Positions 16,219 through 61,379 of a DNA stretch of 64,000 nt are shown piece after piece (within the stretch, counting starts at the first letter, position 1; each line of letters opens with the position of its first letter). The DNA lies in the NCBI GenBank assembly GCA_039621445.1, contig CP154954.1:32264012-32328011 (forward strand). The letters run 5' to 3'. Under the pieces are notes generated by a model. The model saw nothing but the letters and a program-made list of their open reading frames with translations, was not told the origin of the DNA and searched no databases. The DNA is from Euglena gracilis (Eukaryota). The translations under genes and the position numbers were made by a program.

Positions 16219-19200
16219 ATGTCTGGGACAGACGAAGCCCTCTCCTGGACTGCAGAGGATTTGCTATTGGTGCCAGGACGATACGCCCCCGCATACCGTG
16301 TTTGGGCGAAAACGACTCTGGCTGTGATTCCTGCTTGGCGGAGACGCTTCTGGTGGAGCAACCAAGGGAACGGTGTGCGGACCTCCTGGGAACACAACAC
16401 GCCACCGACTGCGTGGCATGTGATCAGCAATGGCAACGGTGCGGAACAGACCCTTTTTGAAGTGAGCACCCCCGCGGCGTTCTCCGGGCTGGCAGGGGTA
16501 GGGCATTTCTGACCCCCCCCCCCCGGGTGTTCACGTTTTGGGTGGACTGTATTCCCCCCCCCCTCCGACATTGAAGTGGCCAGGGCCCGTGTGGCTTAAG
16601 GACAAGTTTGCTTGAGACAGACCCAATTCCAGCCCAAACCAACCCCCAGGTGCCTCCTTTGGGCAGGTGCCATCACTGCAAAAAAATGGCCTCTTCCCTG
16701 AAAGAGCCTTGGTGGGGGAAGTCTCAATGTCCAGGACAAGGGAGGAGGGAATGCAAATCCATGTCTGCTGGAAACTTTTGAACTTGGAAAATTTTCGCTT
16801 TTTGGACCTCATTTTCCCCTGAGGCCAAAAATTTTGTTGATTTTTTGTCATTTTTCGCGTTTTTTTTTTTGCGGACAGATTGCATGTTTTGATTCGGCAT
16901 TTCCAACCTTTAAACAAGAATATACCTTCAATAATGCATAATATAACGGGCATAATACAATGTTATTTGAGGGTATACCACCTTGGGCATTTGAAGTCTG
17001 GGACAATGGGGGTATGAGTTGGGTGTATTTCTTAGAACTCCAAGTAACTCAGTTTTGCTTCATATCCAAACACATTTGAAGTTCTGTTTCAAGTTTTGTA
17101 CTGGTTCAATTTCAATGATAGCTGTTTTCAGAGGAAATTCTTGAGTTTCTACCAAGCTTGGTTTCTTTCAAAAGGAGTTGGTGGGGGGTAAATGTTTGGA
17201 TGAAGGTAGGTATATCATTTGAGGGGTTATTGCTTGTGGAGGAGCGAAAGTGACCCCTCGTTTTGGATCAAAGAATTTTCATGTCCGGCATCTTACCCCC
17301 CCCCCTAGTCCTACGACCACCCCTCATTTACGACCACCCCCCGGTCACAGGTTGCAGGTCATGGGGGTGTTGTGACCACCCCCCCCCGGGTCACAGGTTG
17401 CAGGTTGCGAAAAATTTAACACCACCTTACCTGTGACCGCCTCCTCATTTACGACCACCCCCCCGGTCACAGGTTGCAGGTTATGGGGGTGTTACGACCA
17501 CCCCCCCTGGTCACAGGTTGCAGGAACCCGGTCATACGACAAGGGGGGGGGGGGGGCGGGTACTTATCTTATTGAACCCCCCAGGGTTGTCTTGAAGAGG
17601 AGCCCTAAACCCCAAACCTGGAGGAGCTTTTGCCCCGGCAATGCCCGAATAACCTGGTGGGGGGGCAAGGGAAAGCGGTGAAGAAGGGGAGGGGGCCACG
17701 TTGCCAACTGAACATGGTTGTTTGGAGGATTTTCTGGGCTTTCAACCTGAACCTGAACTTCAACCTTCGGTACTTTTTCGCTGTCCAACTTCCAACAAAA
17801 AATTTGTTTTTAAATTATGGTTCGGTTTTGCGACCCAAGAAGGATAAAAAAAGATGATACCAACAACCTGGCTTTTTTTTTGAACACAAGTTCTCATCAG
17901 CGCTGGAAACAAGGCCCAAATAAATTGGCAAGGGGAGGGCAAAAAGATGGTTCCGATTATCTGGCATCGGGTCATTTGGGTTGGGCGGCAGTCCCTCTTT
18001 TTTCTTTCCCGGATCTTCCCACCTACTCCACCTCGCAGACAGCACCGTGCCGATCTGGCTGGAGGGCACCCCCCAGCCCCTGACCCAGTTCTGCCGCCTC
18101 CAGAAAGGGGACTTCGTCCGGTACTTCAAGTGAACGGCAGCGTGCAAGCAAATGCTCAGGCTGGCGCAAGGATGGGAAGTTCTGATCCCTGACTGCAAAC
18201 TCCGTTTCGGACAAACAGCAGGGGTAGTACGGGGGTGGGGACCGTGGCGCCAAAGGTGCCGCGATCCCTGCCAGCCACAGCAGCCCCCTCCCCCCCCCCC
18301 GGGTTGGGGGTGCTAGCTAGCCAGCCCCTTTTGGGGGGTCCAGCCCAAAATTTTCGGCGCAAAGCGCCGAAAATTTTTGAAAAACTGTGTTCAAAAGTGG
18401 CCAAAAATGGGGTTTGGGGGGCGTTTGGGGCATTTTTGGGGGGTTTCAGATGCATCATTTTTTCAAAACTGTGTTCTGCAGGTCATTTTTTTGGCATTTT
18501 TCCGATTTCAATCCAGCTCGCCCCCCCTTGCCCCCCTGAAACCTTGGCCCAAAACATTGTTTTGCGTCTGAAACCATGTTCAGGGCGAAGATTTAAGCAC
18601 TTTAAGGTCTCGAAACAACATGGTATCATGTCATCCAAAGCTGAGGTTGCAACTCGGAGCCACCCTCCCAATCATACCCCCCCCATTCAAATGTTAAAGC
18701 TAAAAACCATGAAAAAGGTGGTCATATGTCAAGTGGAAGGTGGGCAAAGTCGACGGCGAATACGTGATCGAACCACTTTGGCGTGGCTCCTGCAGATGGG
18801 AAAGGATATTTGTGCCCCCCCCCCCCTCATTTATAACCCTCATTTCAGGCCAGCACCCCCCCTTTTTCGGGCTTTGGGTCTGTACTGGGAAGGGGGCATA
18901 CCATTGCTTAATGCCTGTCCCACCCCACCCCCACCGGGGGTAACTGACTGGTTCTTTCAGAGTGACTGACTGGTTTTCTGGCCAAGAGCCCCCCCCCCCC
19001 CAGGGGTGGGGTGGGCCCGAATGAAAAGTGGCTGGCCTGGCGCCAAAGGCGCCAGAAAATTTTTAATTATTTTGAGAATTTTGGCAAATGTTCATTGCGT
19101 ATTCAAGAGTGGCTTATCCCCCTGGGGGGTAAGTGACTGACTGGTTTTTTGGGGGAATGTGACTGACTGGTTTTTTCCGAATGGAAAGTGACGCCGGGGG

Positions 19201-59974: not shown

Positions 59975-61379
59975 TCCCCGGCGCTTCGCGCCGTCAAGGG
60001 GGGTCTTATTTTTGGATTTTTGATTGATCGGCCCGGGGGGGTATGGGAGACAGAAATTACGGGGGTGGAATCACGGGAAATAAATTATGGCCAACCTTTT
60101 ATTTAAAGAAAATATGTGAAAATTCAACATTTCAGGGAGTGGCTCCCCCAACAGGCGTAAGAATTTAGACGGCCGGGAATGCACTTTTCACTTTTTGCCT
60201 AAGTTTGCGCACCTGCGCATTCTTTTTTGACCGAGTGAGTCACTACCACCCGACGGGGCGGCCGACCCGACAAGCCGAGGTGATCGAGAACAAAGGTGTA
60301 CCACGACTTCCGGTGTCCGAGGATTTTTTTGAGGAATCCGACTTTTTTGACCTTGAGGAGACCTGTTTTTGACCTCCGCCGGCCGGGGGAAACACCTCGT
60401 CAAGCGAAGGCGGTGCGACACGAAATGCTGTTTTTCGAGGCGGCACCCTCGTCCGGTGGAGGTACGGTACCCGCCGGCTTCCCCCATTCCCCGGTGGCCT
60501 CGGTATTGCGCAGGTGCGCATTCACCCCCCTCCCCCCTCCCCAGCCTTTATTTTGATTTGGAGGCAAAGCAGGGGCCTTTGGCTGGAGACGCCCTTCCCT
60601 CCCTTGCCGGTCCATCCCTCACCTTCCCTCGCTGTCCTTTGGTCCTTGGTCCGATATAGGGGGGAGGGAGAGGGAGAGTGCCAGGGGTATAGAGAGGGAT
60701 GGGCGGTCCGACACACGGTTGGAGCGGCGTGGATATGGTTCGCCGGGGGTATAGGGTTGACGGAGGGGTGTGACAGGGTCCCATGGCCCCACAGGGGATC
60801 TCCGAGGCACGCCGTGCCCTGCACACACTGCGGCCCTCTGGCCGCACGCCTGCGCCGCCCGACGCCCCGCCGCTGCCGGCCCCGGCGCAGCGCTGGACGC
60901 GCTGGTAGGTGCACTCCCCTTGGCCTTTGTGTCTCTCCCATGGGGAGAGGGAGGGGTGTGCCCGCACCTGGTCCACCTCCCAGGGGTGAACCCCCGAGTG
61001 GCCTCGGGTGTGCCACCCTGGTCCAGTGGGCCGCCTAAGTGTACGCTTGGGGTGTGTGCTGCTGGCCGGTGTGCGTGCACTGAGCGGTAAACCAAATCCA
61101 AAAGGCATGCATGATTCAGGAGAGGGGATGAATTCGCATGTGCGCATTCTTTTGGCCCGGACGCTGTGTGCACCGTGTGTACCCACCGGCGGCTATGTCG
61201 ACTGTGCATGCGAGAGGGGTTGACAGAATGGGAGGGAATTGCCTCTGGGGAAGAGAGGGGTGTGCATGGGAAAACAATGCGCATGTGCGCAATCAATACA
61301 CTGTGAGTAGAAGAATGCGCGCATGCGCAATGTTGCATTGGGCTGGGAGTCTGAAGAGGAGTGCACCCCCCTGTGGTCT

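Follow-up and report, generated by a model that had tools for sequence, protein, structure and literature searches.

A 64,000-nt stretch of the Euglena gracilis genome (contig CP154954.1, positions 32,264,012–32,328,011; hereafter the window, in whose coordinates all positions are given) contains elements that are abundant transposons of the miniature inverted-repeat type (MITEs) of this organism, flanked by 8-bp target-site duplications (TSDs). Judged from the letters at their ends, the anatomy of these elements fits the code of the euglenid nonconventional (NC) introns exactly, and a gene mapped at 21435–41358 of the same window contains introns that obey this code. We infer, on good grounds, that such elements have given rise to NC introns.

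Element geometry and the nonconventional intron code

The initial annotation had listed eight elements with 8-bp TSDs, and reading both ends of each upheld this: the repeat was perfect in five (A–E) and matched at seven of eight positions in three (F, G, and H). Two further elements, J and K, which were not on this list, came out of the scans described below. Across the 11 elements in Table 1, the TSD was perfect in five, matched at 7/8 positions in four and at 6/8 in one, and only 2/8 positions matched in an old copy of the B family. The terminal inverted repeats (TIRs), scored as matches over the first 16 nt of each end, followed the formula CAGG(G)-N7-TAAG in nearly all elements. The statement that nearly all of them start with CAG and end with CTG held for most, but MITE A has CAT...ATG ends, which would not fit the NC code, and MITE H lacks a 5' TIR.

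The length of the flanking repeat was examined with two unbiased scans of the window. In the first, 574 outermost exact 11-mer inverted pairs had perfect repeats at their flanks, with lengths of 6 to 12, in 1, 0, 5, 0, 0, 0, and 0 cases, respectively, one of the five 8-bp cases (20527–36125) being a chance pair. Among 111 CA...TG pairs with TIRs matching at no fewer than 14 of 16 positions, lengths of 5 to 10 were found in 1, 1, 0, 4, 1, and 0 cases. Both scans agree that 8 bp is the favored flank-repeat length over the range 5–12.

The TIR families had been described as unrelated, which did not hold, because ends, subterminal sequence, or a 22-nt terminus are common to several of them. Elements F, G, D, and K have ends or subterminal sequence in common, and MITEs C, H, and J and a fragment at 15798 have the 22-nt terminus in common. 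The pattern of this terminus occurred four times in the window and not once in 100 shuffles, and a 13-nt subterminal motif was present 26 times where 2.2 were expected, in pairs with a spacing of 18 nt close to the element ends. In MITE C, the subterminal motif TCCAGCCAGCAGC is present twice per end. In DNA run X1, the summed word depth, which is not a copy number, was 2e5–6e5 in MITE-bearing bins versus approximately 90–900 in unique bins, and at 43187, precisely where element D has its 5' end, the flanks of 48 contigs of this run diverged. The 22-nt TIR pattern gave 0 matches when metagenomes were scanned for it, and Rfam gave no match at gathering score.

The gene at 21435–41358 was mapped with a protein of the eukprot set, EG_transcript_170 (P0002), to which one exon peptide is 98% identical; the 26 exons map at near identity. 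Fifteen of its 25 introns are compatible with GT-AG or GC-AG borders (GC-AG in one), and the remaining 10 have no GT/GC-AG solution at all and were classed as NC. Introns of the kind presupposed by the initial annotation are thus present in the window itself. The conventional introns have GTGTG donors in 9 of 15 cases and C-rich acceptor tracts, and both features have been described for E. gracilis (PMC11170887). The published NC code, 5'-N3-CDG...CH'G-N5-6/R (PMC12501133), was satisfied by 7 of the 10 NC introns and by none of the 15 conventional ones. Six of these seven have spacers of 3 + 5 = 8 nt (four with CAG/CTG and two with CGG/CCG), and one has 3 + 6. When the ends of the NC introns were compared as inverted repeats, 8–12 of 16 positions matched, against 4.0 in random pairs.

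Experimental work has shown a strict requirement for a donor spacer of 3 nt; on the acceptor side, the spacer measures 5 nt, and one of 6 nt is tolerated (PMC12501133). The reported E. gracilis NC consensus is CCAGG at +3 to +7 and CCTG at −9 to −6 (PMC11170887), and the CAGG...CCTG ends of the elements are the same four letters. Together with their TSDs, elements B, C, D, E, F, G, J, and K read N3-CAG...CTG-N5; on the plus strand, the base after N5 is a purine at C, D, E, and F and a pyrimidine at B and G. RNA folds of MITEs E and C including their TSDs showed TIR–TIR pairing in both, and in the fold of MITE E the TIRs were paired from CAG to CTG. The arithmetic proposed at the outset, in which 3 + 5 = 8 nt equals one TSD, is sound, and its footing is firmer than was known to the initial annotation. 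Because spacers of 3 nt and 5 nt are required, excision of an element with one TSD would restore the mRNA.

In the mechanism that we propose, the elements would be nonautonomous cut-and-paste DNA transposons, comprising MITEs and two inflated long forms (D and F), whose insertion through a staggered 8-bp target cut would leave 8-bp TSDs around TIRs of approximately 16 bp and subterminal repeats. On transcription, the TIRs would pair, and the NC code would remove the 3 nt before CAG and the 5 nt after CTG. In other words, the removed stretch would be the element plus exactly one TSD copy, and splicing would leave no scar where an element had inserted into an exon. That the elements are cut-and-paste transposons with a geometry satisfying the NC code seems to us reasonably probable. 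We advance more tentatively, with the balance tipping slightly toward doubt, the extension that the 3/5-nt ruler was matched to the 8-bp cut of one CAGG...CCTG transposon lineage, that its exon insertions were born as scarless introns, that most NC introns (which make up from 57% of all introns in E. gracilis to 72% in E. agilis) descend from it, and that the elements of the window are the living source population.

Transposase superfamily and alternative explanations

The elements may have been mobilized by a transposase of the hAT type. Transposons of the hAT type typically combine short TIRs of 14–18 bp with subterminal repeats and CAGGG ends; their TIR end consensus is YARNG, and their weak target pattern is nTnnnnAn. 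The elements resemble hAT MITEs (Ac/Ds-like) in their 8-bp TSDs, 14–18-bp TIRs mostly beginning CAGGG, subterminal repeats, sizes of 270–700 bp, and high copy number; they differ in that a partner transposase was not seen, the TSDs are rich in G or C runs, one family has CAT...ATG ends, and another starts with CAGGC. The CAGGG ends of B, C, D, J, and K and the 5' ends of G and F fit the consensus, while CAGGC (E), CATAC (A), and the CAGGA at the 3' end of both G and H fall outside it. An assignment to hAT, as made in the initial annotation, has the TSD length, the short TIRs, and the end letters as its basis and is unproven.

Two results count against a hAT origin. The 150 longest open reading frames (ORFs) of the window and 150 ORFs of elements D and F contained no transposase domain, hAT included, and domain matches were limited to zf-RVT, one TFIIA, and an RNase H that scored weakly. 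Furthermore, none of the G- or C-run-rich TSDs has T at position 2 together with A at position 7. The elements could instead have been mobilized by another superfamily with 8-bp TSDs (P-like, Merlin, or an undescribed one), a serious contender that we nevertheless find somewhat doubtful. In its favor, besides these two results and the off-consensus ends of MITEs E and A, two Merlin families with 8-bp TSDs have been reported from E. gracilis itself, with membership defined by TIRs beginning GG, an 8–9-bp TSD, and a DDE_Tnp_IS1595 transposase (PMC8101967). The TSD length of the window elements fits this definition, but their TIRs begin with CAGG directly at the TSD, in contrast to the GG start of Merlin, and no DDE_Tnp_IS1595 domain was found in the ORFs searched. 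The combination of TIR length, subterminal repeats, and CAGGG ends argues for hAT.

The agreement between elements and introns might also be a coincidence, with ordinary MITEs piling up in introns and intergenic DNA and NC introns having a separate origin. We consider this unlikely, although a number of observations favor it and weigh against a descent of NC introns from the elements. Of the intron-generating system envisaged by the initial annotation, NC introns and the matching geometry are present in the window, but no element is bounded by exons or constitutes an intron on its own. GT/GC-AG introns contain B, C, G, and the old B-like copy, and an older NC intron contains J; the other elements (A, D, E, F, H, and K) are found outside the coding sequence that was mapped. 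Confinement of the MITEs to conventional introns or intergenic DNA, which the initial annotation had named beforehand as speaking against its idea, is thus the pattern seen here, with J nested in an NC intron; this location test covers one gene, a sample too small to refute a transposon origin. The two classes also differ in appearance: the elements are repeated, with long near-perfect TIRs and intact TSDs, and do not run from exon to exon, whereas the NC introns are single-copy, with short decayed stems. The ends of the NC introns have no relatives among the MITE families of the window, and the MITE-family matches within them are nested fragments only. The 8-bp repeats expected at NC introns are not intact in any of the seven that fit the code; their flanks match at 21 of 56 positions, a weak excess over the approximately 14.4 expected. 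Three of the 10 NC introns have other stems and spacer sums, one of them with a protein mismatch at its border. The borders themselves were obtained by listing, for each intron, all donor/acceptor pairs that reproduce the protein, and are exact within these sliding sets, with no junctions taken from mRNA letters. Finally, many transposon superfamilies start with CA or CAG, and because such ends are common among transposons, part of the end-letter match could be due to chance.

Against a coincidence stand three separate agreements, namely the CAGG/CCTG letters, the spacer sum of 8 nt that equals the TSD length, and the inverted-repeat ends of both elements and introns. In addition, a foreign CAG...CTG cassette has been spliced out of an exon experimentally (PMC12501133). 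The reverse direction, in which NC introns, once excised, gained mobility by way of an intermediate (RNA or circular) and were copied into the "MITEs" seen here, is very improbable: NC introns reportedly exit in the form of circular RNAs (PMC11282704 and PMC12501133), but each copy has its own 8-bp repeat of the local target, which indicates a staggered DNA cut and not a carried-over spacer, and 16-bp TIRs with subterminal repeats fit transposase binding.

The mapped gene and its surroundings

Table 1. Transposable elements, mapped gene, and NC introns satisfying the published code in the window (TIR, matching positions; TSD, matching positions or sequence of a perfect repeat; the slash in the intron borders precedes the base after the spacer).
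Feature	Positions	Strand	Length (bp)	Ends or borders	TSD	Context and remarks
Element F	6291–10701		4,411	D/G-type TIR, 13/16	7/8	interior consists of repeated copies of the element's own 5' part
MITE A	18897–19218		322	TIR 14/16, start CATACC	perfect, GAAGGGGG	2.2 kb upstream of the gene's ATG
MITE J	21654–21926		273	TIR 15/16 (CAGGGGTTTTCTTAAG)	6/8	nested in NC intron i1
MITE B	22527–23218		692	CAGGG...CCCTG; weak TIR, 7/8 over first 8 nt	perfect, GCCCCCGC	GC-AG intron i4 (22515–23758); begins 12 nt past donor
MITE C	27225–27701		477	TIR 15/16 (CAGGGAATTTCTTAAG)	perfect, GTTGGGTG	GT-AG intron i7 (25565–28792)
MITE G	30895–31341		447	TIR 13/16	7/8	short form of the 43187 family; GT-AG intron i10 (30084–31398)
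Old B-family copy	37585–38043			CAGGGCGT ends	lost, 2/8	72% identity; GT-AG intron i20 (36698–38086)
MITE H	42382–42840			5'-truncated	flanks 7/8	inverted C-family copy, 75% identity over 453 nt; downstream of last mapped exon
Element D	43187–58178		14,992	perfect 18-bp TIR (16/16); ends match MITE G	perfect, GTGGGGGA	
MITE K	58832–59308		477	perfect 16-bp TIR (CAGGGTTGGATGGGAA)	7/8	subterminal kinship to D and G
MITE E	59689–59974		286	perfect 16-bp TIR (CAGGCTTCTTTTTAAG)	perfect, TCCCCGGC	
Gene	21435–41358	+				residues 1–927 of EG_transcript_170 (P0002, 1849 aa); 26 exons, 25 introns
NC intron i1	21513–21962	+		N3-CAG...CTG-N5/G		contains MITE J
NC intron i2	22044–22238	+		N3-CAG...CTG-N5/G		
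NC intron i19	35264–36559	+		N3-CAG...CTG-N5/G		
NC intron i21	38211–38721	+		N3-CGG...CCG-N5/A		contains 38-nt A-family fragment
NC intron i22	38794–39016	+		N3-CAG...CTG-N5/A		flanking exon piece 39015–39181 in run X15
NC intron i23	39184–39386	+		N3-CAG...CTG-N6/A		spacer sum 9
NC intron i25	40027–40612	+		N3-CGG...CCG-N5/G		A-family fragments at 40422–40512

The interior of element D contains a 50-bp satellite at 46344–49142 (2.8 kb, approximately 56 copies, 91% match), which has long open frames in three plus-strand frames. At 55172–57036, retroelement remnants are present: the minus strand carries a reverse-transcriptase zinc finger (zf-RVT; E-value 2.4e-5), and the plus strand carries a weak RNase H match. 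The coding context around elements A and E gave no convincing frames.

The identifier style of EG_transcript_170 is that of the E. gracilis transcriptome paper. Residues 928–1849 of P0002 were not found in the window, and P0002 had no match in Pfam. A GT donor follows the last mapped exon at 41359, with no further P0002 exon in the remaining 22.6 kb (41359–64000), so that the gene beyond this point either has a very long, transposon-filled next intron or is a broken locus. A spliced 3.8-kb contig of run X15 contains the pieces 34225–34386, 39015–39181, 39854–40025, and 41209–41358, and five X15 exon pieces coincide with protein-defined exons. A minus-strand reading of the X15 pieces, which gave apparent CAG+4/CTG-8 borders, was rejected because it is the plus strand that carries the open frames, and the borders in question are GT-AG. 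The exon at 35162–35263 lacks approximately 24 nt relative to P0002 (residues 580–598; window positions 35204–35236), and the X15 contig is seemingly approximately 25 nt longer; the missing nucleotides could reflect a micro-exon, an indel between strains, or an error in the assembly. The NC intron at approximately 22279–22430 lies between the copies of an imperfect direct repeat of 9 nt (7/9; 22276–22438), which results in 10 protein-compatible junctions and a spacer sum of 10. Long microsatellites are also present in the gene's introns, namely (GTT)111 at 23246–23578, (TG)80 at 24213–24372, and (GTGT)135 at 25583–26123, in agreement with earlier reports of tandem repeats in E. gracilis introns.

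In the raw RNA runs X21 and X24, 3774 of 3798 and 700 of 727 reads, respectively, matched the window only partly, almost all of them in poly-G/C. Splicing or MITE excision was not shown by these two runs, in which usable coverage was absent, and no precise MITE removal or empty site was found among the 15 joints listed of 1267. A run search listed no RNA run for 26200–36199. The poly-G/C tracts at 27579–27604, 31817–31837, 43238–43258, and 44677–44694 draw hundreds of partial RNA-seq reads, and the false "opposite strand" joints at such tracts are a mapping hazard in the E. gracilis genome.

Near the end of the window, a minus-strand ORF at 62208–62792 encodes the conserved N-terminal domain (approximately 160 residues) of proteins of approximately 500–580 aa with acidic/proline-rich tails. 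It has 31 relatives, all unnamed (best identity, 73%), and paralog-like matches suggest a multicopy gene. The family had no Pfam match, the ORF at 62322–62987 on the minus strand had no match among the longer proteins, and the 31 relatives provided no gene placement for MITE E or K.

Relation to known systems and significance

The remark in the initial annotation that a transposon origin had already been suggested was correct, as the descent of NC introns from MITEs had been put forward in 2014, before any euglenid transposon was known (PMC3935182). A 2024 review treats CAG/CTG as a TIR and the junction repeats as TSD-like, with neither a TSD length nor hAT in its available portions (PMC11282704), and the 2025 paper on the code restates the MITE idea, in the text available, without a TSD argument (PMC12501133). 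The E. gracilis genome paper gives repeats in broad classes only. In a literature search that did not extend to most subscription journals or to figures and supplements, no paper was found that connects euglenid NC introns by name with hAT, with a TSD of 8 bp, or with particular families of MITEs.

The elements share with the euglenid NC introns the CAGG...CCTG letters, the paired ends, and the 3 + 5 nt outside the stem, which equal the 8-bp TSD (PMC12501133 and PMC11170887). They also resemble the introners of Micromonas, Aureococcus, and dinoflagellates, in which a DNA transposon with TIRs and TSDs is removed from the mRNA and the TSD helps to restore the exon (PMC11282704). Introners differ in that the spliceosome acts and a 3–5-nt TSD supplies a splice site, in contrast to the non-spliceosomal stem-and-ruler removal with an 8-nt TSD proposed here. 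The Merlin families discussed above occur in the same organism and have TSDs of the same length (PMC8101967), differing in their GG start.

The origin of NC introns and the reason for the asymmetric 3/5-nt spacer rule are open questions. The window provides concrete high-copy MITE families with CAGG...CCTG ends, in which the TSD length is the sum of both spacers, and this offers a simple rationale for the spacer rule, namely that it would serve to remove the element together with one TSD. With the 2.4-Gb assembly and the knock-in assay, both of them published, the idea of a MITE origin is now directly testable. Should it prove true, Euglena would rank first in scale among the known cases of introns made by transposons and would be the first in which their removal is non-spliceosomal.

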